NCBI GenBank assembly: GCA_018672285.1
Contig: JABHGC010000225.1
Location: forward strand, 7,153-71,152
DNA from: Methylococcales bacterium
GTDB lineage: Bacteria > Pseudomonadota > Gammaproteobacteria > JABHGC01
Direction of reading: 5' to 3'
DNA: 64,000 bases
Shown here: positions 1 through 37,466 of the stretch, one piece after another
Numbering within the stretch: position 1 is the first letter of the stretch
Layout: each line of letters begins with the position of its first letter
Notes under the pieces: generated by a model
What the model saw: only the letters and a program-made list of their open reading frames with translations
The model's database searches: none
Told to the model about the DNA's origin: nothing
Translations under genes and position numbers: made by a program

Positions 1-229
1 TTTGGGTTTGGTTTGCATTCCCTTCTAACCATGGAATCATCTTCGCCAAATACACAGGCTCACCACCGAGGACTAAACAGCGTAATGAGGCCAATTGTGC
101 CATTTCTGCTGTCGTCACAATGTGCTCATCGACCATTGAGTAAAAACTGCTCGGTGTAATATTTAAAATCGTGACATTGTGTTGGCTGATAAGTTGCAAC
201 ACACTCTTCGCTTTCGCAATTTCTTGTAA
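1..229 (-). other. Mid-A-domain sequence (post-A4, pre-A5) following the A10 motif directly with no T domain; continues off-window
   Basis: Translated ...SKEKHSLQEIAKAKSVLQLISQHNVTILNITPSSFYSMVDEHIVTTAEMAQLASLRCLVLGGEPVYLAKMIPWLEGN, which has the shape of the A4-to-A5 region (...ITVLNxTPS...LRxLxxGGE...) and not that of a PCP. Confidence 0.5.
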
Positions 230-3200: not shown

Positions 3201-6200
3201 GATGCAAACACCTGTTTTTCTAGCATTTGGTGAACAGCAAAATGGCTTGGATAAACCACTTCTGTTTCGTTCCACTGATCAACCATTAAGGTCCACTCTG
3301 TCTCACTTAACATCGGTAAAGTAGAAACAGGCTGCTCAGGATCGGCGACCATGCCAGACAATAAATTATGATAATGACCAACCATATTCTCGATGCTGGA
3401 TTGATCAAATAAATCGGTATTATATTCCCAATGGAACACTAAGCCATCTGGCGTTTCATTGATCATGATGGTCAAATAAAATTTGGCCGTTTTAGTATCC
3501 GCTTCAATTGGTGAAAAGGTAAAATCACCCTGCTCCATATTCATCTCAGGCATGTTTTGTAACACTAACATCACTTGAAATAACGGAGACACATTCTGCC
3601 GACGTTCGGGCTGAATGTCGTCCACGAGTTTTTCAAAGGGGGCATCTTGATGGGCAAATGCATCTAGCGTTACTTCCCGAGCATTACGTAACAACTCTGA
3701 GAACCCAGGATTACCCGTTAAGTCACCACGGAGTACAACGGTATTCACAAACATACCAATCAATGCTTCGGTATCGGTCTGTCGACCCGCAACCGGTGTA
3801 CCAATACAAATATCTTTTTGACCCGAGTATCGTGACAACAACACTTGCAGCGATGACAATAAGGTCATAAACAGCGTTGCACCTTCATTCTGGCCAATCG
3901 TTTTCAGTTTATTCACCAAGCTTAATTCCACTTTATCGTGGCATGTTTGGCCTCGATAACGCATCACTTGTTGCCTAGGACGATCTGTTGGTAAATCTAA
4001 TATCTCAGCATCAGCAAGCTGCTCAGACCAATACGATAACTGTTGCTCAAGCACGTCACCGACCAGCCAGTTCTTTTGCCAATATGCATAATCACCATAT
4101 TGAATGGATAACGGTGGCATAGAGGTTTCATGGTTGTGAATCACCGCTTGGTAAAAATACCCAAGCTCTTTAATAAACACATGGCTGGACCAACCATCTG
4201 AGATAATGTGGTGCATATTGATGATCAACACATGCACATCATCATCCGTCTCCACTAAGGTGACGTTAAATAATGGCAACTGAGTTAAGTCAAAGGGCTT
4301 TTCAACCTCATGCCTAACCAGCTCTTCAATGGTTTTATCGGAGCTAATATCTTTGGTGATGACAGTTAATGGCACCGACATCTCGGCGTGAATTTTTTGT
4401 ACTGGCGGCTGGTTAGGCTCAACAGAAAACGTCGTTCGCAATATTTCATGACGCATGATAATGGCAGCAATCGCGTGTTCAAAGGCCTCTCTTTGCAAAA
4501 CGCCTTCCACTTTAACAGCAGCAGGCACGCTATAAGCGACATTTCCAGGTTCTAATTGATCTAAGAACCACAAACGCTCTTGTGCAAATGACAGCGGGAT
4601 CGCTACATCACGAGAAACGGCGGTAATTGCTGGTGCTTGTAAGGTTTTTTCTGTTCTCAAAACCACATCAATTGCTTGGGCAAATCCGCCGGCTGTTTCA
4701 GACTCAAACAACGTTCTTAATGGAATTTGAACTTGATATTGTTTAGATAATTTTGACACCACTTGGGTTGCCATCAATGAATGGCCACCTAAAACAAAGA
4801 AGTGATCATTGACACCGACTCGCTCAATGTTCAACGCTTCAGCCCACACATCACACACTGTTTGTTCAATACTGTTGCGTGGTGCGACATAAATCGCATC
4901 CCGATCAAGACCGGGTTCTGGTAACGCTTTACGGTCTACTTTCCCGTGTGCATTAAGTGGCATATCTGAGAGCGCCACATACTGCATAGGCACCATATAA
5001 TCAGGCAATACTTTAAGCAGAGACTGACGCGCTTGTGCCGGATCAAAGTCATCGGAAACCACATACGCCACAAGCTGATCGTGTTTGACTAAGACCGTGG
5101 TATCCGCCACGCTTTCCAGCTGACTTAGTGCCACTTCAATTTCACCAAGCTCGATACGCAAACCACGCAACTTCACCTGGAAATCGAGCCTGCCCATATA
5201 TTCTATAGTGCCATCCGCTAACCTGCGACCTAAGTCACCGGTTCGGTAAGCACGGATACTTGGCGCAAATGGTAAACTGATAAAGCTCTGTTCAGTCAGC
5301 TCTGGTTGCCCCATGTAACCGGCACCCACACAAACACCTGCGATGACGATCTCACCACAGACCCCATCAGGCACTAATTGTTGCTCTGCATTCAAGACAT
5401 ATAACGACACATTGGCAATGGCACTACCGATAGGCGGTGATGCCTGCTCATACGCTTGCGGTGCTGTAACCGTGAATGCAGCAACAACATCGGTACACTC
5501 TGTTGGGCCATAACTATTCACAATTTGAGCGACACAGCCTTCTTGTTGTAACCAACTCAACAACCGAGGCATTTGGATCGCTTCACCACCAAGCACGGCA
5601 TAACGTAGACTGGATAACTTCTCTGAATATGTTTCAGCTAACGGATACAACATACTCGGCGCACAGTTAACCGACTGAACTTGGTGTTGCAGAATCAAAT
5701 CTGCAACAAGCTCTGGCTCATAATGGGACAGCTCAGGTAATACCAAGCTACCACCGTGGCAAAGGTTAGCGAATATATTTTTCTGCGTTAAATCGAAACC
5801 AATCGAACTAATCAAGATAGAGCGGCTACTGCCATTCATATCCAAGGCATCGGCATACCAGGCAATTAAGTTAGAAAAGCTGTGTTGATACACACTGGCA
5901 CCTTTCGGCTTCCCTGTAGAACCTGATGTATAAATCGCATAGATCAACGCATTCTTCTGTGCAGAATCCACAACCACAGGTTCCGTGGTATTTACCGCTG
6001 CCTCTTCGACAATGATGACCTGTTGATCTGCAAAAGAGATGTCTTTAGCAATACGGGCTTGCGTTAACACAATCGAGACATTGGCATCGGCCAAAATATA
6101 GGACAAACGCTCTTCTGGGTAGTCAGGGTCTAATGGGATATAAGCGGCTCCAACTCTCAGGGTGGCAAAGATGCTAGCAATCATATCAACCGACCGGTGA

Positions 6201-9200
6201 CAACACACACCAATCCACTCTGGCGTGCTGTCTAATGCCATAATCGTATGAGCAATTTCATTCATACGATCATTTAATACTTGGTAACTCACCTGCTCAT
6301 TACCGGCAATGAGGGCCACTGCATTCGGAGACCGTTTCACATGCGCTAAGAATTGGTCATCTACCGATTCATATTCATCTAATTGACTAACCACTTGCTG
6401 AGAAGCAATTTGTGCTTGTGCCAACTCTGATTCTGTTAACCAGTTTAGTGCCGACACTTGTTCGGTGCCGCTTACAATTTGTTGGGCAACAAACTTAATC
6501 CGCTCTAGTAAATCTAATTGTTCAAAATGATCCGAGAATGACAATAAATTCAATTGCCAACCTGCATCCATAACCTTCACAATCATTTGTACTTGGTCTT
6601 CAGCAACAGGGGGAGAGTACTGTTGCAGTGCCTGATCCTGACCTAAGAAAGGCATTGTTGCTGCAAAATGGTAAAAGTTATAAAGAAAGGTCGTTCGAGC
6701 AGCAGGCAATAGCTGTTGCTGTACCATGACGGACAGATGACCGCGCTTTTTATCCATTTTTTGTAGCTGACGAACTTGATCAAATAATTCCGTTAAATTT
6801 AAGCTGCCATCAAACATGGCTTTGCTAAACAACACAGGCATTTGCTGATAATAACAACCCGCAGTCGCTAAGTGACCACGAGGCCTTCCAGAAAGCACTT
6901 CTGTGATGACAAAATCGTCTTCACTCCGACAAAAAACGGCCAGTGACAGTGCATACAATGATCGGAAGAACATGGTTGGTGTCATTCTGTTTTTACGACA
7001 AAATCGCTTAATGTCTTTAAATAAAGCACCTTCAATAACCAGATCAGATGCTTGATACTCCGATACAGCCGTACTGGTTGGAAAATCTAAGCGCTCTATC
7101 GTTTGTTTCTGCTGCTGCCAAAAATCGATGGCTTGAATTTTATCCACATCGTCGGCCGCAACGGTTACATAATCAAAGAAAGAGGTTGCTGACAACGGTA
7201 ATTCACAGCCCTCAGACAACGCCGTGTATTGAGCACAAATTTCTGAACAGACATGGGTCATGCCCACACCATCTAGAATAATATGTTGTGCCGCTTGCAA
7301 TAAATAATACTCATCGTCCCCTATTGCGATCACATAAAACTTAATCAGTGTCTCTTTATCAAGCTCATAAGCACGATAAGTAAATGCCTCAATCATTTTA
7401 TTGGCTTGAGCGTGTGAAGCATCACCTGCCGGTAACTCAATCACCTCAAACTCAATAGAGCGTTGCTTAGGAATACATTGATAAACAGGCTCAGCATAAG
7501 GCTGATCACAGCGTAGCAAGCGTGCACTTAAAATAGGATTATTATCCACTACCATCTGGCAAGCGCGTTGCCACACACTGGCACTAAATTCACCCTGTAA
7601 TTTCACCGCAAGACCAAGGCAGTTACGCGTGGTCTCTGGATTCACAACCGTATGAATATACAGATCCCGCTGTGTTGGCGTCAGCGGATAAACACCCAAA
7701 TAATCTTCTTGATTAAGACCAAGCACTTCATGTAAGGAGTGTTCGTTCAGCAAAGAAATTGTATTCAGAGGTTGCTCAATATTACCGACCATTTGCTCTA
7801 ATACAAACTGATAGTGCTGCATCATCACTTCAATGGTTTCAACATCGAATAAATCCGTATTAAATTCAACCAAAGCATTAAGCTGTTCACCATACTCAGA
7901 TACAGATAAAATCATATCGAACTTGGCTGTAGCCAACTCACTTTCTACCATCTCAAAAGACAACCCAGCCAGTTCAAACTCGGTATCCACAGAAGTTTCT
8001 AACGTGAAGCCCACTTGTGCTAATGGCGGGTATGACATTGAACGATCTTTGACCAAATCGTTCATAATCATCTCAATAGGGATATCTTGATGACCGTAAG
8101 CGGCCAGTGCACGCGTCCGAACAAGTTGTAAAAATTCAGATAAGGTTGGGTTGCCTGCCAAATCTGCTCGCATCAACACCACATTCACAAACATACCGAT
8201 CAATGGCTCTAATGATGCATGACTACGACCTGCAACCGGGGAGCCAACCACAACCGTCTCTTGACCTGCATATCGGCTCAATAAGATCTGATATGCCGCC
8301 AATAGATACATATACAGGGTGACACCATTGTCTTGTGCGTTTGCTTTAACCTGCTGTGAAAGTTCATCAGGCAACTGCAACCGATAACGCCGACCAATAT
8401 AGGTTTGAATATCGGGTCTTGGCCGATCAGTTGGTAAGGTCAGCTTCTCTGGTGCCCCGTCTAAAGTCTCTCGCCAAAACTGCAACATACCCGCAAGTAC
8501 ATCATCACTTAACCAGTCTCGTTGCCATATTGCATAGTCAACATACTGTACGGACAACTCAGGCAACATCGGTGATTGTTGCTGTGAATACGCTTGGTAA
8601 GCATGGCTGACCTCTTGAACCAAAACATTCACCGACCAACCATCAGACACAATGTGGTGCATGGTCAACATAACCACGTGCTCTTGTTCTGACAGCATCA
8701 CCAGTTTTGCCCGTAACAATGGGCCTTTGGTCAAATCAAAACTTAAAGCGGCATATTGCTCAGTAATGTTTTTAAGTTGTTGCTCTTTTAAATAGTCAGG
8801 CTGATCGGAGATATCTTCAACCGGAATGGTTTGAGACTTATAGTCATCAATGATTTGCACGGATTGGCTGTCAACCGTCGCAAAACGCGTTCTCAACGCA
8901 TCATGGCGTTTAATGACAAAATTGACTGATTTTTCTAACGAGACAATGTCTAACTTACCCGTTAAGCGGATGGCAGCAGGCATATTATAAACCGCATTAC
9001 CCGGCTGTAGCTGGTCTAAGAACAAAAGTCGTTCTTGAGCAAATGACAGCGGTATATTACTCGGTAATGTTTGCCTTTCAAGTACAGGCATGGGTACTTG
9101 GTCTACTTTTGCCAAAGCCAAATCAAGCTCATGCGCCAACTGTTGGATGGTTGGTTTTTCAAACACTTGGCGAACACTGAGTTCGACATTAAATCGCTCA

Positions 9201-12200
9201 CGTAATAATGCAATCATCCGTGTCACTAATAATGAATGCCCTCCAAGCTGGAAGAAATCATCGTTAACGCCAATCCGCTCATGTTTTAACAATTCACCCC
9301 ACAGGCTCGCGAGCAATTGCTCTGAATGGCTTTGAGGCGCAACAAAATTGTGCGCTTGTACTAGCGCTGATGGGTTGGGTAGTTTTGACCGATCTACTTT
9401 TCCATTCGGCGTTAATGGAAACTGTTCCAACGCAACACAATGGCTTGGCACCATATAATCAGGCAGTTGCTTGGCAACACTCAGATTAATCTCGTTCTCT
9501 TCTGCCGTGCCCACGGTATAAGCAATAATTTGCTCATCCCTAATCAGCACCAAACATTCACTCACACCCTCAATTTGGCCAATAACGGATTCAATTTCAC
9601 CTAATTCAATACGCAAACCACGCAGCTTAACTTGATGATCTGCCCGACCAACAAACAACATCTCCCCACGTTGGTTTTGTAGTACCCGGTCACCTGTTTT
9701 ATACATCTTACCGTGGCCGGTAATGTGGTTCTCAATGAAGCTTTCAGCAGTGGCAGCAGCATCCCCTAAATAACCACGCCCAACACCGAGACCTGCAATC
9801 ACCAACTCACCCACAACACCCATGGGTACAGGATTTAAATATTGATCCAACACATACAACTGAACATTATCATTGGGCAAACCAATTGGGATCGGCCCGG
9901 TTGCTGCCAACTCGTTGTCAGTCAACACATAAAATGCTGCGATATCCGTACACTCGGTCGGACCATAGGTATTCACGAGGGATACGGATTGCTGTGCTAA
10001 CCAAGGCTTAAGTTGGTTTAGCTGAATAGACTCCCCCCCTAAAAAGACCGTTTTCACAGTGGCCATTCGAGGCCAATACATTGGCTCGACGAGGGGGTAA
10101 AAAGCACTTGGCGCACTATTAATTCGTGTGACGCTATGCAATTCAATGGCTTGAGTGATTTGCTCTGGGTCGTAGAACTCTGTATCCGTAAAGCAAACAC
10201 AACCGCCACACCACAGTAACGCAAACAAGTTCTTTTGAGTTAAATCAAAACCAAGCGCACTGATGATTAACGTACTGTCGGTATCGGTAAAGGCAAACTC
10301 ATGACAATACCAGTGTAATAAATTCACAGCGCCCGCATGCTCTACACCAACCCCTTTTGGCTTGCCAGTAGAACCTGAGGTAAAGATCTGATAAATCAAT
10401 TCAGACCCGGTAAACACCAAATTGGGGTTCTCAACAGAGAACTCGGCAATATCGGTTAAACCATCTATTGCTAACCAAGCAGTTGTTTTATCCAGCTTAT
10501 CAATAACAGATTGGTCACTTAATACTGTTTTTATCGCCGCATTATCTAAAATATACTCAATTCGGGATTGTGGATAATTAGGGTCAATCGGCACATAACA
10601 ACCACCTGCTTTTAATACCGCCAATATCGCAACCAACACATTGGTTGAAGGAGGCAGACAAATGGCCACCGCTTGCTCAGGGTTTAATCCGTCCTTAATG
10701 AGCTTATGCGCTAATTGATTGGCACGCTCATTAAGCTGTTGATAGCTCAGTTTCGTATTCTGATAAGCGGTTGCAATATGATCAGGTGTTTTTTCGACTT
10801 GCTGCTCAAAACCTTGGTGCACTGCTGTGTAGGGTGCATCGGGTTGCTTTTCAGTCGCATTGTAGTCTGTGGTTAATGCCGCTAAAGCCGACTCACTGAG
10901 CATGTTGATTTGGCCAATAGAACCTGCTGCGTTATCCACCATCGCCTGCACTATATTTTGCAAGTGTTCAACCATATTGACAATGGTCGATGCCGCAAAT
11001 AAATCAGTGTTGTACTGTAAACTCCCCGTGATCTGGTCATCACTTTCAACAAGATTCAAGACCAACTCAAACTTAGCAATTCCCATGTCTAAGTCATACG
11101 GTTCTACCACAATATTCGGTAACTCAACGCGTTCATCACCTAAATTTTGCATTGAAAACATCACTTGGAAGACCGGCGACCGCGCCATATTACGTGGCAC
11201 ATTTAACACATCGACTAATTTATCAAACGGTAAATCCTGGTACTGGTAAGCGTCTACTGAGTCCTGTTTTAACTGCTGTAGTAATTCGCTAACACTGGGG
11301 TTAGCCGTAAAATCCGCACTGATCGCTTGAGTATTAACAAAGAAACCGATTAAAGGTGCCACTTCAGGATAATGCCGACCCGCTATGGGTGTGCCAACAG
11401 CAAATTGGTCTTGGTCGCTATATCGATGCAATAAAATTTGGAATGCGGCCATTAAGGTAATAAACAGCGTGCAGTCGTTATCCACAGCCAATTGTTTTAG
11501 CCCAGCGGATAATGATTCTGGCAGTACAATCGCTTGCTCAGCCCCATTAAACGTTTGATTAACTGGTCTTGGGAAATCAGTATTCAGTTCTAGCGCAGGC
11601 ACATCGGCGAGCTTTTGCGTCCAATATTGTATCTGCTCAGCAAGCACCTCCCCTTGTAACCACGCTCGTTGCCAATGTGCAAAATCTTTAAATTGGATAT
11701 CTAATGCGGGTGGCACACTTGGTATGCCTTGTACATCTGCACTGTAATACTCTATCAATTCTCTAACGAGCACACCAACAGACCAACCATCTGACACACT
11801 GTGATGCATGGTAACTAGTAATAAGACTTCATCCTCACCTGAACAGACAAAAGCACGAATCAAAGGCCCTTGTGTGAGTGAGAACGGTTTACTCGCTGCA
11901 GAGATGACCTGAGACTGATAGAACTGAGCGGCATCACCTTCCACATTCACACTAACAAAAGGAATATCTAGCGTTGTTTGTACCCGCTGAATCGGCACCC
12001 CATCCAGTGTGGTAAACGTGGTACGTAACACGTCATGACGAGCCACAATTGTATTTAATGCCCGCTCAATGGCCGCAATATTGACATCCCCTTTGAGCAT
12101 GACGGCAGCGGGAATATTATAAGCTGAGCTATTGGGCTCTAATTGATCAATAAACCACAATCGCTCTTGAGAGAAAGATAGTGGCGCATCCACCCCTTCA

Positions 12201-15200
12201 GCTAACGGTACAATTTCAGGTATATCTTGAGTATCGTTTTGATATTTGGCCACCGCTAATGCTAAAGCTTTAACCGTGGTCGACTCGAATAAGACTTTAA
12301 GTGGTATATCTACTTTGAACTGCGTTCTAATGGAAGCGATCAGTTGCGTCGCCAATAATGAATGGCCACCTAACGCAAAGAAATTATCTTCAATGCCCAC
12401 TTTACTGACCGATAATAACTGCGACCACATTTGACACAACTGAGCTTGCAGCTCATTTTCGGCCGCTACATATTGATCATGACTGGCTGAATCTGGTTTT
12501 GGTAATGCTTTTCGATCCACTTTACCATTACCCGTAAGCGGTAAAACAGGCAGTTGTAAAATGGATGAAGGCACCATATACGCAGGTAACTTATCGCCTG
12601 CAATGGTTTTTATTTGTTCAATATCCGCATCATGATTGGCAACCAAATAAGCGGTTAACCGTTGATCACCCGGAATATCCTCTCGGACAATAACGACAAC
12701 TTCTTCAACGCCTGCAATCTCAGCAATAACAGATTCAATTTCACCTAACTCTATCCGGAAACCACGAATCTTGACTTGAGAATCTATTCGACCTAAATAC
12801 TCAATACCACCATCTGGTAAATGCCTCGCTAAATCACCCGAACGATATAATTTACCGTCAGTAAACGGGTTCTCAACAAATTTCTCAGCGGTAAGCTCAG
12901 GGCGGTATAAATAGCCCCGTGCCAGACCTGCCCCGCCAACACACAACTCACCAGGAATGCCGATAGGCACTAATTGCAAATCACTATTGACGATATACAC
13001 TTGTAAATCAGGAATTGGCACCCCAATAATACTGCTGACAGCAGCCCCTTGTTTTGCCAGCGCCACATCTTCTGCGGTAACAACACGATAGGTCACATGT
13101 ACAGTAGTTTCAGTAATACCATACATATTCACTAAGGTTGGGAACTGATCACCATGCACATCAAACCAGCTGTCAAGCTGTTTAAAGTCCAGCGCTTCAC
13201 CACCGAAGATAACATAGCGTAAAGCCACCGCGTTCTCAGTATCACAATTGCTCAGCAGGTGCTGCTCAGCTCGGATTAGTTGGTAAAATGCTGATGGAGT
13301 CTGGTTGAGCACGGTGACTTTTTTATCCACCAATAACTGATAAAATGCCTCCGGCTCACGACTAATAAGGTAAGGCACCACAACCACTTCACCGCCATAG
13401 AATAAGCCACCCCATATTTCCCAAACTGAAAAATCAAACGCATACGAATGGAACAACGTCCATACGTCAGTCTCATCAAACTCATACCACTCATGCGTCG
13501 CATCCATTAAGCGAACAGCTTGTTGGTGCTCAATTTGAACACCTTTCGGTTTGCCAGTGGAGCCTGAGGTGTAAATCACATACGCGAGGTGTTCTGGTTG
13601 AATTAACAGATAGAGCGGTTCTGTTGATAACCCGCTTAAACGGTCGTCATCTAGCAACACAGTGTCCACTGATGATGCCAGCTGATCTTGTAAATCTTGC
13701 TCAGTAATCACGAATACGGCTTTCGCATCTTCAACAATAAATGCAATTCGATCATTAGGCGCACTAGGGTCTAATGGCAAGTAGCCTGCACCTGATTTGA
13801 GCACCGCTAAAATGGCAACAACAATATTGATAGAACGATTACAATACAAGCCGATCAAAACATCATTTGTTGCCCCTTTTTCAACCAATAGGCGAGCGAG
13901 TTGATTTGACTGTTGCTCCAGCTCGGCATACGTTAATTGGCCATATTCATCACTAACCGCAATGTTACCTGGGAAACGCTTGACACTAGATTCAAACCGA
14001 TCCACCAGTGTATCTGCCGTCGGATATGCTTGGTATGGGTATAAATGATTGATTTGATCACTTTGTTCTTGAAGTGTAATCCAAGGTAAATCATGTAACC
14101 TTTCCGCACCATCTAAACAGCGTTCTGTCAAAAGCACCAGGCGATCTAGCAAGCCTAAGTCATTAAAGTAATCACTATGGTAATGCAGGTTGAGTACCAC
14201 ATCGTCATAACCGGCATTAATGACGAGATGCACTTGGTCATCAAAAAATAACGGAATTTGTTGTTCTAATTCTGTTTTTTGACCTAAGAAATCTAACTCT
14301 GCTGCAAACCCATACAGGTTGAAGAAGAAATTAATTTTATCCGATGGCATGAGCTGGCGTTGTTCAAATACAGAGAAATTTTTATGCTCGCCCAAGGCCC
14401 GCTGATAGCCTCGTATAAAAGTGAAATAATCGGTTAGTAAAGTCTCACTATTGACTAAGTCTTTCGGAATAATAATCGGGGTTTGCTGATAATAACAGCC
14501 TATCCCTTTGAGGTGCTCTTTAACCCGGCCACCGACAATTTCATAAAAGCCGTAGTCTGAATCGGGTAAGCAGTATTCTTTTAATAATAAAGCATAGAGA
14601 GACTTCAATAATAACGATGGGGTTAACCGGTTTCGGCGACAATACTTCTTAATCGCAGCCCATTTTTCTTTATCAATAGAGGCTTGTACATGCACTTTTT
14701 CATGCTGGGTATTCGGCAACCATTGAAACGATAATGGCTCCACGCTGGCCGATTTTTCGCGCCAGTAGGTTTTTGTGTCCTGCAAATCAAAACTTTCAAT
14801 ATTATTTTTGACATAGCTTGGGAAAACATTCGGCAGTGGCTCATAGTCTTCATTAGCGAGCAAGCTACTCATGACCTTATTCAGCTCTAGCGCATGCAAC
14901 GTACCTGAGGTGCCATCCATTAATAAATGGTGTGATGAAATCACAAAGACATAATGCTCTTGGCTGATTTTAAGTAAGGCATTTCTATGCAGTGGGTCAA
15001 CATCAATGGCATACGGCTGATACACAAATTGATGAATCATATCGTCAACTTGCTTAGAGGTTAATCGGTCTTCTAAGTAGTCTATATAGGTAAAATCGAC
15101 TTCGTAGTCTTTTTTGTGCGCTTGATATACCGGTGCTAAATACGGTTTATTCACAGCATGTAACGTTGTTCTCAAGACTGGATGTGCATCGGCTAATTTT

Positions 15201-18200: not shown

Positions 18201-21200
18201 TGTGGATACAGAGGGTCTAGAGGGACATAAGCACCACCGGCTTTAGCAATGGCAAGCATCGCAACCAACATACGGACAGAGCGCTCCACACACAAACCGA
18301 CCAATTGATCAGGCTGAACCCCAAGGCTCATTAAACGACTGGCCAATTGGGCACTTTGTTCATCAAGTTGACGATAGCTAATTGAAACCTTTGCATCAGC
18401 CGCAGCGATCTCTTCAGGGTATTTAAGTGCCTGCCCTGAAATAATTTGGACGATGGTTTTACTGCTAGGGTAATCTAACGACGTTTCATTCCAAGTCTCC
18501 AGCAACAAGCTTTGTTCTGTGCCAGTCAACATGGGTAACGCATAAACAGACTGTTCTGGCTGTGCTAAAAGGTGCCCTAACAGCTCAACAAAGTGCGCTG
18601 AAAAACGCTCGATGGTTTCCCTTGAAAATAAATCGGTTCGGTATTCAAAGCTGGCTTCATACACCCCTGATTTTTCTGCCAGCTCCAAGCTTAAATCATA
18701 TTTTGAAATTTTCTGATGAGCAGGTACTAACTTGACCTCAACATCAGACAATAACTGACTCACATCCACTTCTGGTGTGTTTTGCAAGGTAAATAAGGTT
18801 TGAAATACGGGTGTGTAACTTGTATCTCGTGTGACCTTAAGTGCATCTACCAATTTTTCAAATGGAATATCTTGATTGGCATACGCATCTAATGAAAACT
18901 GTCTGACCTGTTGAATTAAGGCATTAAAGCTCACCTGCTTTGCGACATCACCCCGGTAAGTCAATGTGTTAATAAACAGACCTAACATAGATTGTGTTTG
19001 CGCTTGTCCACGACCAGCAATCGGGCTACCCACGCAAATATCGTCCTGTCCGGCATAACGTGCCAGCATCACCATGTAGGCACTCATCAAGACCATAAAT
19101 GGCGTTGCCTCTTGCAGCTTAGCATGCAGGTTAATCGCATCATGTAAGCTTGCAGGTAAGGTAAAGTGTAACAACTCACCTTGGTACTGCTGCACTGCAG
19201 GTCTTGAGAAATCCGTGGGGAGATTTAACGTGGTACTTCCTGCCAACGCTTTTTGCCAAAATGCAATTTGCCCGGTTAAACGCTCACCAGACAGCCAGTC
19301 ACGTTGCCATAATGCATAATCTGCGTACTGCAACTCAGGCATTTCAAGCGCCTGCTCACCTTCAGTTTGCTTCTGCTGGTAAAGTGAAATCCACTCTGAA
19401 ATAAACACGCCTAAAGACCAGCCATCAGCAATAATATGGTGCATCACAAACACCAACACGGACTCTTCTTCATCTTCTGACATCAGGTAACGATTCACAG
19501 AAAATAAAGCTGGTTGCTGCAAATCAAAGACTTGTCGTGCACATTGATCAATCCGACTGCGTAGCGTTTGCTCAGGCAGAGCCATTGCCGACAGATCTTC
19601 AGTCGCAATGGTTACGCTCAGTTCAGGATAGATCACCTGCATTGCAACCCCATCAACGGATTCGAAGCCCGTTCTGAGCACTTCATGTTTCGCGATTAAT
19701 TGGTTTAATGCCCAAGTTAAATCTGCAGTATCAACCTTGCCTCTCATGCGTAATGCACCTGGCATATTGAACACATGCCCATCGTCATTAAAGTTTTGCA
19801 AGAACCACAAACGTTCTTGTGCAAATGACAATGGGATGCTGTCTGGCCGTTGCTGGTTGGCCATATCAACAATCGCATCTGCGGATTTCGCTTGTTCTAA
19901 TGCTCTTGCAAGTGCTTCAACCGTGGGATTTTCAAACAATGTCCGCAACTGAATTTGAGCGTGATAGTCCGCTTCCACTTTGGCAATCAGTTGTGTGGCT
20001 AACAAGGAATGCCCACCTAAGGTAAAGAAATTATCCAGCAAGCCTACTTTATTAACTTGCAGCAACTGGCTAAATAACGTAGCAACGTCTTTCTCCAGTG
20101 CTGTTCGTGGTGCCACGTAGCCTTGTCCTGAAGCCTCAGGGTCAGGTAGTGCCTTACGATCCACTTTGCCATTAGGTGTGAGTGGGTATTTTTCCAACAC
20201 AACAATATGATTGGGCACCATATATTCTGGTAATGCTTGGCGACAAGCTAATGCCATATCGGTTGGGTTTGCACTGCCGATGACATAAGCGACTAATTGG
20301 TCTTTCTTAACAATAACCAAGCTCGCATCAACACCCTCACCATAGCTGATGACGTTTTCTATTTCCCCTAATTCAATTCTCAACCCACGTAATTTCACTT
20401 GGTGGTCAATTCGGCCAACAAAGATGATTTGCTGGTCGACATCCAAACGGACTAAATCACCCGTTCGGTACATTTTACCTTCATTGCGGAATGGATCAGG
20501 TATAAACACCTTATCCGTTTGCCCATCATCATTAAGATAACCTCGGCCAACCCCTCTTCCGGCAATATAAAGCTCACCAACCACACCACGAGGGACCGGT
20601 TGACGAGCGGCGTTTAAGATATAGAGGTACACATTGTCATTTGCTTGGCCAATAGGCATGGGTTGATTGGCGTAATCATTGGCGTTATTCAGGGTAAAGC
20701 TAGCGGCAATATCAGTACACTCTGTCGGCCCATACATATTCACCAATTTGGCATCATGGGTCGTTAACCAGACTCGTAGCTGGTTCATTTGAATCGGCTC
20801 ACCACCAAAAAACAAGGTACGCAGTGAGTTAAGTTGACCTGCTGTTTCTTGCTCGACTAAAGGGTAAAAGGCACTTGGCGCACAATTTAATAAGCTGATA
20901 TCAAATGCCTTAATGGCACTCAGTATCGCTTTAACATCATAATGGGCAGACCCGGTGAAACACACTGAGCCACCTTGCCATAATGCCGCAAATAAATTCT
21001 TTTGCGTTAAATCAAAACCTAAAGCACTGATAATTAAGCTGTGGTCAGTGTCTGACATTGCATATTCACGGGTATACCACTGGAGTAAGTTCGTCATACC
21101 AGCGTGTTCAACGCCCACACTCTTCGGCTCTCCAGTCGAGCCTGACGTAAAGATTTGATACAGCAGTTGGGTATCGAGGATATTGCGATCTGGGTTACTC

Positions 21201-24200
21201 GTATCGCCATTTAACCATAACGCGGCATCGTCCATGGCAAGCCATATATCATTATCAGATTGAAAAACAGCTAACGCACTGTGACTCAAAACGGCAGACA
21301 TGTCTGACTTATCAATGATGTATTGTATTCTTGCAGCAGGGTAATTCGGGTCTATCGGTACATAACACCCACCCGCTTTAAGCACCGCTAAAATAGCAAC
21401 AAGTACATCAGGTGATGGCTCAATACAAATGCCCACAGCAGACTCTGGCTGCAACCCCTGATTCAGTAAATAATGTGAGAGCGTATTGGCCTTCTCATTT
21501 AAAACAGCATAGCTATAGGCAACCCCAGGCATTTGAGTGGCGATGGCATCGGGTGTTTTTTGAACCTGCGCTTCGAACCCTTGATGCACGGTTGCAAAGG
21601 TAGAATCTTGTGGGTTGATACCGCCATTCCAAGACCATTGCTCAGGGGTGGCTTCATCATTGAGCAATAAATCAAAGTCACCCACGGTTGTAACACCGGC
21701 CACGAATTGTTCTAGCAACTGTTTAAAGCGAGGTAATAAGTCTAGGCTTGAGAAGTTCGCATCATTAAAACGCAAGCTTAGCATCAAACCATCGTCCAGA
21801 GTTTTGATAATGAAGAGAATATCTTGTTCGCCAACTTGTGCATTACGCTGAATCGTTTTAATCGATACATCACTGTGTTTCAGTTTAATATCGTCAGCTA
21901 GCTCAAAAAAGTTATACGAAAACTTCAAACGCCCTTGCGGGATAGCTTGCTGCTGGGCAAAGTTTGAAATATCTTGTTTGCTTCCCAGTGTTCGTACGAA
22001 TTGCTTAACGTGGGTAAAGTAATCCCCTATGGGCGTATCGTCTTGTAATAAATGATTGGGGAAAATGACCGGAACTTGCTGATAATAACAGCCTAATGTT
22101 GAGTTGTGCTTTTTCACTCGCCCACTGAGTAACTCATAAACCACAAAGTCACTACTGGTTCGGCAGTATTCTTTCAAGACAATGCCGTAAATGGCTTTCA
22201 ACAACAGTGCCGGTGTCATTCGCTGGCGACGACAGACTTTTTTAACCTCTAACCAAAACTCACCATCGATTAGCTGTTCTTCTTCAACCGTTTTACCCTG
22301 TTCCACTGCCAATGGTACAAAATCCAATGGCTCAACATTCGCGGTTGCATTTTTCCAGTAGCGTAATGTTTCTTCTCGGTCGAAACGTGCCGCATTTTGT
22401 TCAACATATTCACGGAACAAACAGTCGATAGAGTGATATTGTTTGCCTTGCATTAAGGCTTCATACGTCCAGCATAATTGCTGAGCATAAACACGAACAC
22501 CAATACCATCGAGCATCACATGATGGATGCCCATCGCGATAACCGTGCGATCTTTTAACAAGTACACTTGATGACGTATTAATGGCCCTTCACCTATCGC
22601 ATAAGGGCGATAGATAAAATCACTGGACTGCTGATAAATTTTGTCTATATCGGCACTGCCACGACGGCAGTCAAATACGTCATACTCAAACACCGAATCG
22701 TTACTGACACATTGATAAGCCGTTGCCAAATAAGGCGCCGTTGAGGCTTTTAGTTGAACTCGGAGGACGGGCTGATCATCATGAACTTGGGCAATGGCTT
22801 TTTTCCAGGTTTCCTCATCAATCGCCATCGGTAAATCCAGGATGTAACCGATGGAATGGTTGATGTTATCAGGTGCCAAAGTACATGCGACAAAAATATC
22901 TCGCTGCATTGTCGTTAATGGCATTGCCGCCATATACTGTTCAGCTTCAATGCTTAAATCTTGGTACAACTCATCGATAGAGACAAAACGATATTGCTCA
23001 ATTTCAGCTTCAGGCTTGTCTACAAAATGTTGTAACAGTCGTTCAAAGTGCACCATCATCTGCTGCACTGTTTCAGGCTTAAATAAGTCTGTGTTGAATT
23101 CAAGCTCACCAACCAAACCTTCTGATTCAGTCAGCATTAAAATCATGTCGTATTTTGCCGTGCCATTGTCAAGCTTCAGTGGTTCTACTTCGACACCAGG
23201 CAAGGTTAAGTCTGCAGTCGGGACATTTTGCAAGGCAAAACCCACTTGCGCGATGGGTGGGTAGCTTAAATTACGCTCAGGCTGAAGTGTCTCAACCAAC
23301 AGCTCAAAGGGTATTTCTTGGTGGGCAAACCCAGATAAAGCGGTATCTCTGACAGATTTTAAGAACTCAACCCCTGTCATGTTGTCATTGATTTTTGAGC
23401 GCATCACAATGGCATTGACAAAAAAGCCAATTAAATCTTCGGTTTTATCAATGTTGCGCCCTGCGATTGGCGAGCCAACACAGATATCTTCTTGCCCACT
23501 ATAGCGATACAACAATACGTTGAAAGCAGCCAACACAGCCATATATAAAGTAATATTTTGCTGTCGGCATAATTCATGTAAATTATCGACCAACTCGGTG
23601 CCAATTTGGAAGCGGTACACTTGACCATTAAAGGTTTGTACAGGTGGCCTGGGGTAGTCCGTAGGTAAGCTTAAAAATGCAGGCGCACCCGTGAGCTGTT
23701 TCGTCCAATAAGCCAGCTGGGTTTCTAAAACCTCTCCTTGATACCAAGTCCGCTGCCAATGTGCGTAATCTGCATACTGAACGGAGAGTTCAGGTAGTTT
23801 TACGGCTCTATTATCATAAAGCGCACTGTAAATTTCTGTGAATTCACGGATAAATAACCCGACTGACCAACCGTCCGAAATAATATGATGAAAGTTCACG
23901 GCGAGAATAAAGTCAGCGTCTGAATTTTTAACCAACATGACACGAACTAAGCGGTCTTGTTCTAGGTTAAAGGGTTGCCGTGAAAAATGTGATAACTGAC
24001 TGTTTAATTCATCCTCAGACGCTACCTCAAGGTGCTGTATGTCTAACGAACAATGATCATCAATCAGTTGCTGAGCGGCACCATCTACAGATTTAAACCG
24101 GGTTCGCAAACTTTCTTGCCGAGTCAGTAATGCATTAAAGGCTTGCTGCACTAGGTCAACATCAATGTCACCTTTGATGGCTACCGCACCAAACATATTG

Positions 24201-27200
24201 TAAATAGGATTTTCTGGTTCTAATTGGGATAAAAACCAAAGCCGCTCTTGTGCAAATGACAATGGCAATGCTTGATCTCTTTCAATCACTTCAATGGGGG
24301 CAATTGCGGTTTGCTCACCCGTGAGATCAATCACTTCTGCTAACGTTTCTAGTGTCGATGCTTCAAATAATTTATGTAACGGAAGTTGTACCGTAAACTC
24401 AGTTTGAATTCTTGAGATTAACTGGGTTGCGATCAGCGAATGACCACCAAGATCAAAGAAATTATCATGCCTGCCTACTTGGTTTGCATTTAAAACTTGT
24501 TGCCACAATACCGACAGACGTTTTTCCGTATCCGTCACGGGCGCAATAAAATCTTGCTCTGATAATAGGTTCGCGTCTGGTGCCGGTAAAGCTTTTCGGT
24601 CAATTTTCTCATTAGGTGTGAGTGGGAACTCATCCATGTACACAAAGGCTGATGGAATCATAAAATCAGGTAAGTTGGTTTTCAGCTGTTTCTTTAAATC
24701 ACTCGCAGTGATTTCATCGGCACCTTCATTCACCACTAAATAACCAACCAAGCGTTGGTCACCGGGGGTATCTTCACGGGCAATCACAACCGCTTCTTTA
24801 ATATGTGCAATGTTACCTAATAAGGTTTCAATTTCACCCAGCTCTATTCGGTAACCCCGTAGTTTAATTTGAAAATCAGCACGGCCAACACATTCTAATA
24901 CACCCCCAGATAACCAGCGAACCAAGTCACCTGTTTTATAAATACGGCTACTACCACCATCAAAGGGGTTTTTGATAAAGACTGAAGAGGTTAAATCGGC
25001 ACGGTCATGATAGCCCGGTGATAAACCTAAACCACCAATATACAGCTGGCCTAATGCACCAATGGGTAATAATTCTAATTTATCATCCAGTACATAAACT
25101 TGGGTATTGTCAATTGGCTGACCAACAGGGATAACTTGACTCGCATCGTCAATACATTGAATAGTTGACCACACAGTTGTTTCCGTTGGGCCGTACATAT
25201 TCCACAGTTCAACGCCAGGTTGTTCAACCAGTTTTTGCGCCAAATTCTGTGGCATGGCTTCACCGCCACAGAGTACTTTTAAGGGTTTTTCTTGCTGCCA
25301 GCCACCATCGAGTAATAACTTCCACGTCGCAGGCGTCGCTTGCATTAAGTTGATTTGTTCATTCACCATAATTTGCTGAAGTTTCACACTATCAACAGCG
25401 ACGCTACGATCAACCAATATCAATTCACCACCGACAAGCAATGGCAACCAAATTTCAAGGCCTGCAATATCAAACGACAGTGAGGTAACGGCTAAGAGCC
25501 GATCACTCGCACTAAACCCTGGCTGACGCTGCATACTACACAAAAAGTTAATGATGTTTTCATGGGGAATTTTCACCCCTTTAGGTTTGCCTGTTGAACC
25601 GGAGGTATAAATCATATAAGCAAGATTTTCACCACCAAGACCTGCAATGGCATTTTTATCACTGCGTTGATCTATTTTTTTCCAATCCGTATCTAAATGA
25701 ACTTTTTCGATACCTTGGGTGTTCAACCCTAAATTAAGTGATTTCTCTGTTACCAATACATCCGCTTTGGCATCCGACAGCATAAAACTTAAACGATCTT
25801 CAGGATACAAAGGATCCATCGGCACGTATGCACCGCCGGCTTTTAAAATACCGAGCAAACCAATCACGAGGTTAATAGAGCGCTCAACACACAACCCCAC
25901 AAACACACCGGGGCCAACATCACGCATTCGTAAATATTGTGCCAATTGGTTGGATTTACTGTTTAATTCCGAGTAGGTAATGCGGTCGTCACCACATTTT
26001 AATGCGACTTTATCGGCATTTTCAGCACACACCACTTCAATGAGTTGATGCAGCGTTTCAATTTCTGGCAGTGTAACGGTGGTCTGATTCCAATCATACA
26101 ACAAGATGTTTTTCTCTTGCTCTGGCAACATCGGCAAATGGTCAACATCTTGATTTGGGTTTTTGACAATACTTTCTAACAAGGCGACATATTGCGCCAA
26201 ATAGCGATCCACAGTTTCTGGTTTAAATAAAGCGCTGTTATATTCTATAGACGCATCTAAGCCGTTATAGGACTCTGCAAGTGATAACCACAGATCAAAT
26301 TTTGCGGTGCCGTTATGGCTTTCAAATAAGCTGACTTCCATTTCGGGTAAGTCAAAATCTTCCATCGGTGTATTTTGCAAAGTGAACATGATCTGGTATA
26401 ACGGATGACGACTTGGATCTCGCTCAACATCCATGCTTTCAACCAGCTTCTCAAATGGGACATCTTGATGAGAAAAAGCTTCAAATGACGCGGTTCGAAC
26501 ATTTTCTAATAATTGCTCATAGCTATCATTGGGGTTAATTTGGGTTCTAAAGACCAAGGTATTGACAAAGAAACCAATCAGGCTTTCTACTTCCGTTCGC
26601 GTTCTGTTCGCGACAGGAAAACCGACTGACAAATCTGTTTGCCCGGTATGCCGGAACAACAATATTTTAAATGCGGATAACAGCACCATGCTTAAGCTCG
26701 CACCACGACGCTCGCTTAATTCTTCTAATGCCACCACAAGTTCAATGGGTATGGTTAAGCGCCTAATCCCACCTTGGTACACCAATACTGGCGGCCTTGG
26801 GTAATCAGTACTTAAGTCAATCAGTGGTAAATTGCCGTTAGACAGCTGTTTATTCCAGTAGCTTAACTGCTCTTGTAAATTATCCCCTTGCAGTGCATTT
26901 TGTTGCCATGCGGCATAGTCTAAAAATTGGGTCTTCAATGGTTTTAAGGGAGATGGCTCGCCCAATAAAAAGGATCGATACAAAGCCATTAACTCTGAGC
27001 TTAAAATCCCCAATGACCAACCATCAGACGCTATATGATGCATGGTGACTAACAACACATAATCTTGACTACCAATTACCACGACTTTGGCTCTCAGCAT
27101 TGGGCCTTTATCCAGCTCGAAAGGAATTTTACCCTCTTCGTCAGCAATCTCTTTGGCAGCAGCTTCTCTGGCTTCAAGACTGAGTGTTTGGTCAATATAT

Positions 27201-30200
27201 TCAATATTTAATTGGATACTTTGGTTATCTGATATCGTGGCTTTTGCAACACCATCAGCTTCTACAAATGTCACTCTCAATACTTCATGACGTGCTAAAA
27301 CGCCATTAAGCGCTTTCTTCATCAATTCAATATTTAAATCCCCACGCATTCTAAGGGCGGCAGGAATGTTGTAGACGGATTTATCGGTTAAGAACCGATC
27401 CATAAACCATAAACGTTGCTGTGAAGATGAAATCGACAGCGTTTGCTGGCGATCAACAATGTCAATGTTATCTTTACTGACGGCACCCGTGGTTTGCTGT
27501 TGTTCGATTAATTCCGATAGTTTTGCAACAGTTGGGAATTCGAATAGATAGCGCACAGGTAACTCAACAGAAAATTTATCTTTTACCCGTGAGATCACCT
27601 GGGTTGCCAATAAGGAGTGACCACCAAACTCAAAGAAGTTATCGTCAATACCAACTCGTACTGCACCCAGTACTTCCGACCAGATATCAACCAAGCCCAA
27701 TTCAATAGGGGTTCTTGGTGCTGTATAAGCATCCGTCATGGTCATGCCGCCAGGTGCTGGCAATGCATTGCGATCTATTTTACCGTTGGGTGTTAATGGA
27801 AAGGCATCTAAGAAGACATAGTCCGTAGGTACCATGTAGCTCGGCAATTGCTCTGCCAAAAATTCTTTTAAGTCTTGGGTTTCAAGTGGGGCAAATGATT
27901 CGGACACCACATAACCGACCAATCGTTGATAACCGGGTGTGTCCTCACGAACCAAGACCACAACTTGTGCCACATCATCATGTTTGGTCAGTGACGCTTC
28001 AATCTCACCTAATTCAATACGGTAACCACGCAGTTTAACCTGATGGTCTATTCGACCTAAAAATTCAATCGAACCATCATGTAAAAATCGGGTTAAATCC
28101 CCTGTTTTATACAGCCGCTCGTTGGCTGCAAATGGGTTGTCAATAAAACGTTCAGCGGTTAATTCCTCTCGTTGCCAATAACCATCTGAAAGACCTGCCC
28201 CACCAATGTGTAATTCACCTGGCACACCAACAGGCACAGGGTTGAGTGCTTTATCTAAGATATACACTTTGGCATTGTTAATTGGCCGTCCAATCGGCAC
28301 CAATGTCCGTAAATCATCAGGGTCACATTCCCAGAAGGTTGAATCAATTGCCGCTTCCGTTGGCCCATATAAGTTATATAAAGGCACATCAAACCGGTCA
28401 TAGTACTGTGATTGTAAGTCTGCAGGTAATGCTTCACCACCACAACACACCCGTTTCAATGAAGACAACGGCTTATTCTCTGGCAACATATCCAAAATCA
28501 TGCGTAACGCGGAAGGGACTAATTGCAGCGTGGTAATGTTATGTTCGTGAACTGCATCGATGAGGTACTCACCATCAGTATGACCACCCGGTTTGGCCAA
28601 CACCAAACAGGCGCCACTTAACAATGGTGCAAAAAATTCCCACACTGAGGCATCAAAACTGAATGGGGTTTTTTGTAAAATTCGATCACTTTCATCTAAG
28701 CCAAACGTTTCTAGCATCCACTGCATGTGGTTGCATATCGCTCTATGTGGAATCATGACCCCTTTCGGATTGCCTGTAGAACCTGAGGTATAAATCACGT
28801 AAGCCAAGTCATCTCTGCTTGGTTGTGGCAGGCTAATATCATTACTGAAAGAGGCAATATTGCGCCAGTCACTGTCTAGCTGAATAACGGTTCCTGTAAA
28901 TTCAGTTAATTTCGACTCGCGCTCGGCTTGGGTTAATAAAATATTAATCGCCGAATCATCCATCATGTACTGAATTCGATCCAATGGATAACCAGGATCA
29001 ATGGGTAAGTATGCGCCACCCGCCTTTAGTACACCGAGTATCGCTACGACCATTTCAACAGAGCGATCAGCACAAATACCGACCAGTTTATTAGGCAGCA
29101 CACCCTTCACAATTAAATAATGCGCTAATTTGTCAGACCGAGCTTGTAACTCTGCAAAGGTTAATGACTCATCTTGATACACTAAAGCGGTATTATCGGC
29201 ATATTTTTTAGCGGTTTGATCGAACATCCCGACCAATGTGTCTTTCGGGTAATCCACCCGAGTGTCATTCCACTCAATGGTGAGCAAGTCCCGATCCGCA
29301 TCGGTCAGTAGTGAGACATCATCTAAAGGCTGATCTGGTGAATCTAAAAGTCGTAACAATAAGGTATGAAAGTGCAGCGACATAATGGCCACTGAACTGT
29401 GATCAAATAAAGCAGAGTTGTATTGAAAGCTACCATGATAGCCGTCTTCACCTTCGGCCATCGTGAGCATAATATCAAACATGGCCACTTGATGGTCTAA
29501 TGCAATGGAGTGAAGGGTCACATCTCCTAATGATATCTCACCACCCGTTTCACCTAAAACGAAGCCAGTTAAGTCTTCATCTTTTTTCTGATAGGCTTTT
29601 TGCAGTACAAACATCGCTTGGAATAAAGGTGAACGGCTGGTGTCACGCGTTGGTTGAATCTGCTCAACCAAGTTTGCCATAGGGTAATCTTGGTGTGACA
29701 ACGCCCCGAGCACATCACTTTTGCACAGCTTAATAAAGTCATTAAATGAACGGTCTTCATCAAATTTTGCGCGCAGCACAACAGGGTCAACAAAGTAACC
29801 CACAATGCCCTCTAAACCGTAACGTGAACGCCCCGCAACCGGCGACCCCACTAAGATATCTTCTTGCCCTGTATAGCGATGCAATAACACTTGGAATACC
29901 GCTAATAACAACACAAATGGCGTCACATCTTGTGCCTTGGCAAACTCATTCACCCGCAGGCTGTCTTCCAAAGGTATTTTCATACTCACGGTTGCCCCTG
30001 CATACCCTTGCACGGGTGGACGAGGGTAGTCGGTAGGTAACTCTAAAACAGCCTGACATTCACTTAAGGCATTCTTCCAATAGGCACGTAATTCACCGCC
30101 CCGCTCACCCATGAGTACGCTATTTTGCCAGTTCACAAAATCTGTATAGCGATACGGTATTTCAGGTAGCTCTATAGAGGTACTTGTCCGCATTGCAGGG

Positions 30201-36725: not shown

Positions 36726-37466
36726 TTATAACACAGACACAACTGAGGTTTTCCAGCAGCACACATTCGCATCATTCATTTGGCGCTCATATGCTAATGC
36801 GGCTTTAAACCCCAACGACCCCATATCAATAGAAGCCATTCCCCAACGCTGCGTCTCCTCAGGGAACTCAGCATCATTCAGCAATGCAGCGTCTACACCC
36901 ACTGACACATCAAAACTTTCCAACCCTCTCATCAACCCATCACCATGTGCTTTTACATAAGCCTCTTTACGCGTCCAACAGCGAAAAAAGGCATTTTTCT
37001 GATCATCAGGATCGCACGATAGTATCGCTGCATGCTCTTGTTTTGAAAAAAATCGTTGAGACAAACTAGACCATTCCACCCGCCTATCTTGCTGCTCTAA
37101 ATCCACCCCTAACCGCCTATCTAACGAAAAAGCAAACAAAGCTTGCCCATGTGAGTGAGACACATTAAATTGCAGCGCATTATTCACAAGAGCAGGTTTA
37201 CCCTGGCTTAAATATGAAAACTCAACAGATTTCGCAGGCATCGCTAAATAGTGACCAAGCAAACTACGCAACACGCCTCTGGCTACGGCAAAATGCATTT
37301 GATCTTGACGCCGGTAAAAGCGTTTAGCCCTAGTCAGCTCAGTCTCGTTTAGCACCTGTAAAAATCGTGACTCAAGCGCCAAATCTACCTCTAACCCCAA
37401 TGACCAAACATGAACCTCATCATCAGCAAGTGTTACAGGAAGTGTCGGTTGTAACCAGTGGGTCAT
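36726..37466 (-). CDS. 4'-phosphopantetheinyl transferase, Sfp/EntD type
   Basis: Signature motifs FNVSHSHG, GVDLE and WTRKEAYVKAHG, about 246 aa. Convergent with the hydrolase gene and about 3.8 kb from the NRPS start. Confidence 0.8.
   Translation of the reverse strand: MTHWLQPTLPVTLADDEVHVWSLGLEVDLALESRFLQVLNETELTRAKRFYRRQDQMHFAVARGVLRSLLGHYLAMPAKSVEFSYLSQGKPALVNNALQFNVSHSHGQALFAFSLDRRLGVDLEQQDRRVEWSSLSQRFFSKQEHAAILSCDPDDQKNAFFRCWTRKEAYVKAHGDGLMRGLESFDVSVGVDAALLNDAEFPEETQRWGMASIDMGSLGFKAALAYERQMNDANVCCWKTSVVSVL

Follow-up and report, generated by a model that had tools for sequence, protein, structure and literature searches.

Does the strict alternation of short and long modules in a nonribosomal peptide synthetase (NRPS) record the tandem duplication of a two-module unit, and what is the additional domain that lengthens every second module? 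Both questions are raised by a 64,000-nucleotide stretch of DNA from a Methylococcales bacterium (assembly GCA_018672285.1, contig JABHGC010000225.1, positions 7,153 to 71,152; this whole stretch is referred to here as the window), which carries a single, very large NRPS open reading frame (ORF). An earlier reading of these letters, referred to here as the original prediction, proposed that positions 4690-27450 hold three tandem copies of a dimodule, each consisting of a module with condensation, adenylation and thiolation domains (C-A-T) followed by a module with an extra domain (C-C'-A-T), that the copies arose by ancient duplication, and that the product has a repeating (XY)3 core. The observation was right, and its evolutionary and chemical interpretation is largely wrong: the alternation in modules 2 to 7 reflects the order of residues in the predicted product, not a triplicated dimodule, and the real point of interest at this locus is C', a well-defined, uncharacterised clade of condensation domains.

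The NRPS is encoded on the minus strand (2-32905), a fact that the original prediction left unstated, in a frame that is stop-free from 32929 to 2 with an ATG at 32905. The ORF contains no stop codon and is cut by the left window edge, giving a product of at least 10,968 amino acids; the rest of the cluster must lie beyond that edge. Domains were mapped with hidden Markov models (HMMs) trained on the window's own domains, together with core motifs, Pfam and NCBIfam. Pfam Condensation, AMP-binding and PP-binding domains were all found, and the ORF holds nine HHxxxDG motifs, ten A3 cores and seven GGxS carrier motifs, so that C, A and T domains are repeated in one frame with their core motifs as in a modular (type I) NRPS. 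The encoded order begins with a fatty-acid--AMP ligase (FAAL) loading domain (31070-32857; Pfam AMP-binding, NCBIfam NF004509 at 436 bits and the FadD32-type NF038339 at 426 bits, both below the curated full-length cut-offs) and an acyl carrier protein (ACP) domain (30722-30913; PF00550), followed by at least eight modules. The C domain of module 1 (29300-30646), which would accept the fatty acyl chain from the FAAL-ACP pair, is LCL-like, with Txo2 and TycC as best matches at about 232 bits; the starter domains RzmA and CDA-C1 are absent among its top matches, placing it outside the starter clade. With FAAL, ACP and C in this order, the gene encodes a single, very large lipopeptide synthetase primed by FAAL, of which the region covers the middle, and which is built from two module types. 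The short type, C-A-T, is found in module 1 (27503-30646), module 2 (24326-27439), module 4 (16745-19837) and module 6 (9122-12187), and the long type, C-C'-A-T, in modules 3, 5 and 7; module 8 (2-4600) consists of a C domain followed by a mosaic.

The spacing on which the original prediction was built was borne out. The eight A3 cores ([ST]SG[ST]TGxPK) lie at 28789, 25606, 21148, 18010, 13570, 10381, 5929 and 2785, and the intervals between them (3183, 4458, 3138, 4440, 3189, 4452 and 3144 nt) alternate between about 3.15 and 4.45 kb as had been claimed. Positions 4690-27450 correspond to residues 1827-9414, and their limits match the points at which the C domain of module 2 starts (27439) and the T domain of module 7 ends (4667). 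The extra domain, anticipated at about 1.35 kb between the canonical C and the A domain, proved to be a second Pfam Condensation domain (PF00668) of 428-430 amino acids (1.29 kb, or about 1.33 kb with linkers) that, in the order originally predicted, stands after the canonical C and directly before A in module 3 (C', 21650-22939), module 5 (14060-15349) and module 7 (6422-7705). The canonical C domain that precedes it, here called the partner C, occupies 22973-24268 in module 3, where its HHxxxDG is intact, 15383-16690 in module 5 and 7739-9058 in module 7, and the A-T portions follow at 19895-21640, 12251-14056 and 4667-6412. Module sizes are thus not uniform, as a domain annotation might have revealed them to be. 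A strict period of two, however, is found in 4 of the 56 possible arrangements of three long modules among eight (about 7%, by our own count), and relatives place C-C'-A-T modules consecutively or irregularly, so the alternation alone is weak evidence for a repeat.

The [C-A-T][C-C'-A-T] order does occur three times in modules 2 to 7, but the copies are not each other's closest relatives. Modules of the same type are 35-44% identical at the protein level, and in a set of 213 C' domains the three C' copies rank only 17th to 63rd as mutual relatives. The T domains and the partner C domains, too, are closer to domains from other genomes than to the copies in their own gene. Reciprocal best paralogues were found only among A domains of equal specificity, namely modules 2 and 4 (glycine, 51.8%), 3 and 6 (homoserine, 54.6%) and 5 and 8 (threonine, 59.4%), and two of these three pairs lie three modules apart, out of phase with a dimodule. 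That the copies are diverged in DNA was correctly noted: comparison of the gene with itself returned the same A-domain pairs as its only notable matches, at 65-68% identity over 883, 1078 and less than 270 nt, besides short motif-level matches of 60-306 nt. The C' regions showed no DNA match to one another, and the canonical C domains shared a single motif-level match of 83 nt. Similarity does not extend across a unit, and no 7.6-kb period would be expected in a dot-plot.

The residues predicted from the A domains follow the same lines. Specificity codes were read by alignment to GrsA-PheA, using a reference that returns DAWTIAAICK for GrsA itself and the textbook codes for other domains. Module 1 gave DAWQCGLIDK (Gln-like), modules 2 and 4 DILQLGMVWK and DILQLGMIWK (Gly), modules 3, 6 and 7 DLKNFGMDIK, DLKNFGTDIK and DLKNVGSDVK, and both module 5 and the inner A domain of module 8 DFWNIGMVHK (Thr). 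The DLKN code denotes homoserine (Hse) (PMC7524897, PMC12283262). The product is predicted to begin acyl-Gln-Gly-Hse†-Gly-Thr†-Hse-Hse†-(Hse or Thr)..., where the dagger marks residues loaded by a C' module. Modules 2, 4 and 6 would then supply Gly, Gly and Hse and modules 3, 5 and 7 Hse, Thr and Hse, and the (XY)3 core is lost.

We consider it very improbable, accordingly, that an ancestral [C-A-T][C-C'-A-T] dimodule was duplicated twice in tandem to give a product with a repeating (XY)3 core. The alternation over modules 2 to 7 is perfect, as such a history would require, and the A domains of modules 2 and 4 are near-reciprocal best relatives exactly one dimodule apart (64.9% identical in DNA over 1078 nt), but the remaining A-domain pairs are offset by three modules and the codes do not read X/X/X and Y/Y/Y. 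The partner C domains of modules 3 and 5 are mutually closest among the window's paralogues (43%), yet for every copy of C', partner C or T, other genomes supply many relatives that are closer than those within the same gene. Periodicity of domains in a megasynthase is in itself evidence neither for a repeat nor for a repeating product, and annotation should treat it with caution.

The original prediction also saw a hazard for short-read assembly in the supposed repeat. No exact repeat of 24 nt or longer was found within the gene, and with the best DNA matches at 65-68% this concern is not upheld. An independent short-read MAG, probably of the same population, carries the gene in pieces. MBT5228779.1 (“MAG: Methylococcales bacterium”, from a 9.65-kb contig) is 100% identical to residues 3851-7067 (window 11729-21379), and MBT5230033.1 (“Methylococcales bacterium”) is 96.6% identical to residues 3080-3904 (window approximately 21220-23692); these matches confirm the order from the A domain of module 3 through modules 4 and 5 to the C domain of module 6. 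The two ends of the contig of MBT5228779.1 fall at conserved core motifs, one within A2 and the other immediately past C3. The fragmentation is the generic assembly problem of NRPS genes, not a collapse of dimodule repeats. The last residues of MBT5230033.1 diverge from the window and have no match within it.

If the alternation is not a repeat, the question becomes what C' is. The three C' domains score 106-117 bits against Pfam Condensation, versus 330-365 bits for the adjoining canonical C domains, and share the motifs PLTxxQRD, PVLR and xHxxxDG, with GCYYQQxP in place of the ordinary xGxFVNT (C5). The active-site motif reads IHHVMLDG in module 3 (where the C5 position shows GCYYQQ) and SHHLLMDG in module 5. 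Among 207 C' copies, xHxxxD[GA] is kept in 203, with HHxxxD[GA] in 177 and the second His only in 26, and the partner C domains have HHxxxD[GA] in 192 of 197. In module 7 C' the motif is AQHIILDG, with the first His replaced by Gln and the second, catalytic, His kept. When a profile of 50 C' domains was compared with solved structures, the DCL domains of PvdL (138 bits) and BacC (134 bits) scored best, ahead of McyA (98 bits, N-lobe only), AmbE (78 bits), the TycC LCL domain (77 bits) and the starter domains RzmA and CDA-C1 (60-82 bits). Likewise, 161 of 204 C' copies scored best against the DCL model among four subtype HMMs built from our own data, in which C domains following a putative epimerization (E) domain were taken as DCL-type. 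By these comparisons C' appears as a divergent clade of the condensation superfamily, nearest the DCL type and with its catalytic motif intact. The DCL domains themselves (BacC C after E, the third C of PvdL, SrfA-C, TycB1) share with C' a PLTxMQ-type C1 and HHxxxDG; they follow an E domain and are the sole C of their module, whereas C' follows an LCL-like C with no E upstream, is not the sole C of its module and carries GCYYQQxP for xGxFVNT. The resemblance is thus one of nearest profile score, at about 135 bits, and not of context.

Other members of the superfamily fit less well. C' lacks the E-domain motifs EGHGRE and FNYLG, and the E model gave it 47 bits, the lowest of the four subtypes. 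The T domain before C-C' is of the GGHS type in 122 of 135 cases, versus GGDS in 59 of 65 T domains before putative E domains in the same data set, and the C domain that comes after a C' module resembles the LCL type, matching TycC best (301 bits); on these grounds C' is not a misplaced epimerase. The N-terminal HH[ILV]xxxxGD motif of dual E/C domains was found in none of 204 C' domains. A heterocyclization (Cy) domain would carry DxxxxD, where C' keeps HHxxxDG, and the 60-82 bits of RzmA and CDA-C1, set against 134-138 for DCL domains, separate C' from the starter type. A modAA assignment fits poorly with AmbE at 78 bits and with the A domains that follow C', which are of Ser/Thr type in 16 of 131 C' modules versus Hse type in 89. 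The interface (I) domains of siderophore NRPSs resemble C' in being non-canonical condensation-superfamily members within modules for one substrate class; they belong to beta-hydroxy-Asp (or His) modules with a TauD-type hydroxylase partner. Unlike them, and in a comparison made by description only, C' is never followed by an Asp or His code, and no hydroxylase gene is visible at 33-64 kb.

These results leave very little room, and even less than for dimodule duplication, for the view that the extra domain is an E domain misread, serves as a recruiting domain of the interface or X type, or is a dead relic. Its Pfam score of about 110 bits, against about 360 for canonical C domains, the QH for HH in module 7 and a clearly degenerate half C' in module 8 would each suit such a reading. 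The E motifs are lacking, though, the neighboring T and C domains are not those of an E partner, the His/Asp motif is nearly invariant across the family, and the Asp-type codes and hydroxylase or P450 genes that would go with an interface domain are missing after every C' and from the visible flank, respectively.

C' is not confined to this gene. A distribution scan using one genome per species recovered relatives at 39 genomic loci, at 21-33% identity, nearly all in marine gammaproteobacterial metagenome-assembled genomes (MAGs) from Pseudomonadales, BD1-7, Spongiibacteraceae, Ketobacter, Moraxellaceae and bins labelled Methylococcales; only Brevibacillus laterosporus and Taibaiella fall outside this group. 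The relatives include a cultured one, Pelagibaculum spongiae (WP_116687287.1). An exhaustive profile search gave thousands of matches, and more than 100 of the 150 representatives listed carry a true C' in a C-C'-A-T module. A word-indexed protein search with the three C' domains returned one distant match and missed a 100%-identical entry, and the distribution given here does not draw on it. Both the loci and the proteins show C-C'-A-T as the order in almost every case, with median linkers of 15 amino acids from C to C' and 10 from C' to A. Relatives combine the two module types in a variety of ways, some with three consecutive C-C'-A-T modules. The nearest neighbor of a C domain preceding C' is another such C in 191 of 197 cases, while a lone C pairs with a lone C in 262 of 289. 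The partner C, including all three in the window, thus forms a clade of its own, and C and C' are co-inherited as a cassette. The C domains that follow C' modules were likewise examined for a clade of their own; the enrichment seen (27 of 47) is confounded by orthology, and we draw no claim from it. Some relatives (P0032, P0034, P0098, L028 and L039) contain C-C'-T modules with no A domain. The B. laterosporus B9 locus (L040, NZ_CP011076.1 948137-989399; also L019) is the sole C' in a plasmid collection, on a stretch of a 1.38-Mb replicon that bears no annotation, and encodes a ketosynthase-ACP-aminotransferase/NRPS hybrid with a C-C'-A-T module of code DIWELTADDK followed by Gly modules with E domains and one DLKN-type module.

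A second regularity concerns the A domain that follows C'. At the genomic loci its code is DLKNxGxDxK in 46 of 57 cases. In the wider set the DLKN (Hse) type accounts for 89 of 131 (68%), and a further 38 of the 131 are of Thr, Ser or ornithine (Orn; DVGE[IV]GSIDK) type or carry the code DIWE[LM]TADDK. Taken together, Hse, Thr, Ser or predicted-basic A domains follow C' in 127 of 131 cases, whereas a lone C is followed by one in 67 of 237 (Fisher p = 1e-42, a value that overstates the number of independent events, as the relatives are not independent of one another). Judged by these codes, C' stands almost exclusively before A domains predicted to load residues with a side-chain hydroxyl or, by pocket reasoning, a side-chain amine, and mainly before homoserine.

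What would a second condensation domain do in front of such a residue? A C-C' module brings two intact C-type active sites to one carrier and a bifunctional acceptor, and from this combination we infer that two acyl-transfer-type steps most likely take place on the same tethered residue. In the proposed scheme the LCL-like partner C would form the normal alpha-amide bond, and C' would act on the side-chain nucleophile to give a side-chain acylation or an ester or isopeptide branch. A precedent for two C domains acting on one module is the icosalide synthetase of Burkholderia, in which module 3 (C-Cstarter-A-T) places two acyl groups onto the Ser loaded by that one module. As here, two condensation-family domains precede one A-T, and their order is the same; in icosalide the residue on that module's carrier is the substrate of the A-proximal domain, while the chain built by the preceding module is taken over by the upstream C. 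Unlike C', the second domain of icosalide is of the starter type (RzmA scores only about 80 bits against the C' profile), and icosalide has one such module where there are three here and up to three in a row in relatives. The account as a whole, combining the architecture, the C' clade, its substrate placement and two acyl-transfer-type steps, is the best explanation we can offer and, in our estimate, stands about an even chance of being correct. That the side chain is acylated or branched specifically by C' is a tentative proposal that we would put at somewhat worse than even. The fuller version, in which the C-C' didomain is a dedicated branching device that acylates the alpha-amine and also the O or N in the side chain of tethered Hse, Thr, Ser, 2,4-diaminobutyrate (Dab) or Orn, is possible but on balance doubtful.

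Several observations weigh against this scheme. Module 6 is of the homoserine type and has no C', as are 25 of the 237 lone-C modules, so C' is not needed merely to incorporate homoserine. At three orthologous loci (L010, L013 and L016) C' stands at the start of a protein before an Ile/Val-like A domain (DAFFLGIVFK), and 2 of the 131 A domains after C' are Gly-like; neither Gly nor Ile/Val offers a side-chain nucleophile. The code DIWE[LM]TADDK is one that we tentatively take to be basic and Dab-like from pocket reasoning, and a literature search on DIWELTADDK found nothing. An AlphaFold2 model of C' built from a three-sequence alignment reached a predicted local distance difference test (pLDDT) score of 55, too poor for inspection of tunnels, and the chemistry assigned to C' is a best guess derived purely from chemical logic. 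Finally, the “tandem CL domain” of the syringomycin class (module 1 of keanumycin KeaB, thanamycin and nunamycin) precedes a Dab module whose Dab is unmodified in the product. These lines resemble the C' modules in placing a doubled C before a residue with a nucleophilic side chain in a proteobacterial lipopeptide synthetase, a likeness drawn by description only, and if they do contain C', its role could leave no trace in the product. The keanumycin authors state that, to their knowledge, the role of tandem C domains had not been investigated, and our own search of the literature on tandem C domains and homoserine found no functional study.

A traceless role is the first of two alternatives that we regard as unlikely, to about the same degree, without dismissing either. 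C' could be an auxiliary catalyst or chaperone for troublesome acceptors, either sharing the condensation with the partner C or preventing or reversing side-chain mis-acylation or the self-cyclisation of Hse, Dab and Orn to a lactone or lactam. Thioesters of these three residues are prone to intramolecular cyclisation, and the unmodified L-Dab of the syringomycin-class products is what such a role would leave behind, although those Pseudomonas tandem C domains are likened to C' by description only. That C' can open a protein by itself, ahead of an A domain of the Ile/Val type, further suggests an ordinary condensation ability. Yet many modules, module 6 among them, handle homoserine with no C' at all, and a strictly conserved second active site with a dedicated clade of partner C domains would be a costly means of mere side-chain protection.

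The other alternative is that C' removes water, either converting Thr or Ser to dehydrobutyrine (Dhb) or dehydroalanine (Dha) in the manner of modAA domains, or cyclodehydrating the side chain onto the preceding carbonyl to give an oxazoline (Ser/Thr), a dihydro-oxazine (Hse) or a tetrahydropyrimidine (Dab). The division of labor would be like that of VibF, whose Cy1-Cy2-A arrangement places two condensation-superfamily domains with split work before a Thr-activating A domain; here the partner C would condense and C' modify. The favored substrates all have a nucleophile placed for ring closure or a beta-hydroxyl for elimination, but homoserine, which makes up 68% of cases, has a gamma-hydroxyl and cannot undergo alpha,beta-elimination. 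Dehydrating members of the C family are known (the albopeptide domains, AmbE, and the modAA clade discussed for Dhb), and AmbE reached only 78 bits with the C' profile against 134-138 for ordinary DCL domains. The Cy domains of VibF carry DxxxxD where C' has HHxxxDG, and the C-C' pair begins with an ordinary C domain of LCL-like type. The C domain of PvdL, which is among the two best structural relatives of C', precedes a Dab module whose residue ends in a tetrahydropyrimidine ring; this match is equalled by that of BacC and may reflect DCL ancestry alone.

Should two acylations on one residue be the function of C-C' modules, this marine gammaproteobacterial family would make multiply branched, multi-tailed or side-chain-linked (ester or isopeptide) lipopeptides, and the present product would have three branch points, an NRPS logic otherwise known only from the single, starter-type case of icosalide. 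Tandem C domains have been noted before in a few lipopeptide lines. The present analysis adds a testable definition: a distinct C' clade whose active site is intact and of which more than 200 members were retrieved, a co-inherited partner C clade, a fixed position and a sharp substrate rule. Structure prediction for NRPS products at present ignores C'; if C' alters or branches the residue, such predictions are wrong at every C' position throughout the family, most of whose marine producers are uncultured.

Module 8 departs from both module types. Its C domain (3299-4600) is followed by a homoserine-type A domain (2555-3277) that continues through core A4 (FDLSQKNFF) and is broken at about residue 10125. 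An insert then brings the degenerate C-lobe of a C' (1853-2545), which covers HMM positions 193-424 at 23-28% identity to the other copies, followed by a Thr-type A domain that is complete (245-1828) and whose closest paralogue is the module 5 A domain. Past the A10 core of this inner domain the outer A domain picks up again between A4 and A5 (2-217) and runs to the window end. The whole (2-3277, residues 9885-10976) looks like an in-frame insertion of about 780 amino acids into an A domain; it may be the scar of a recombination event, or one A domain nested inside another. Either way, parts of the C'-A unit evidently move about inside this gene.

No tRNA genes and no Rfam matches were found in the window. 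The flank at 33-64 kb contains a histidine kinase, a 670-amino-acid alpha/beta hydrolase and a phosphopantetheinyl transferase (PPTase), followed by genes of housekeeping type, with no obvious tailoring enzyme visible. Two ORFs in this flank, of 198 (39308-39904, minus strand) and 469 amino acids (44464-45873, plus strand), have no Pfam match at E <= 0.001. The alpha/beta hydrolase (34705-36717, plus strand), which has weak chlorophyllase/PETase-like Pfam matches, and the Sfp-type PPTase (36726-37466, minus strand) are both encoded no more than 4.6 kb from the ATG of the NRPS. The PPTase plausibly serves the synthetase, and an esterase beside a synthetase that may form side-chain esters could be either meaningful or coincidental.

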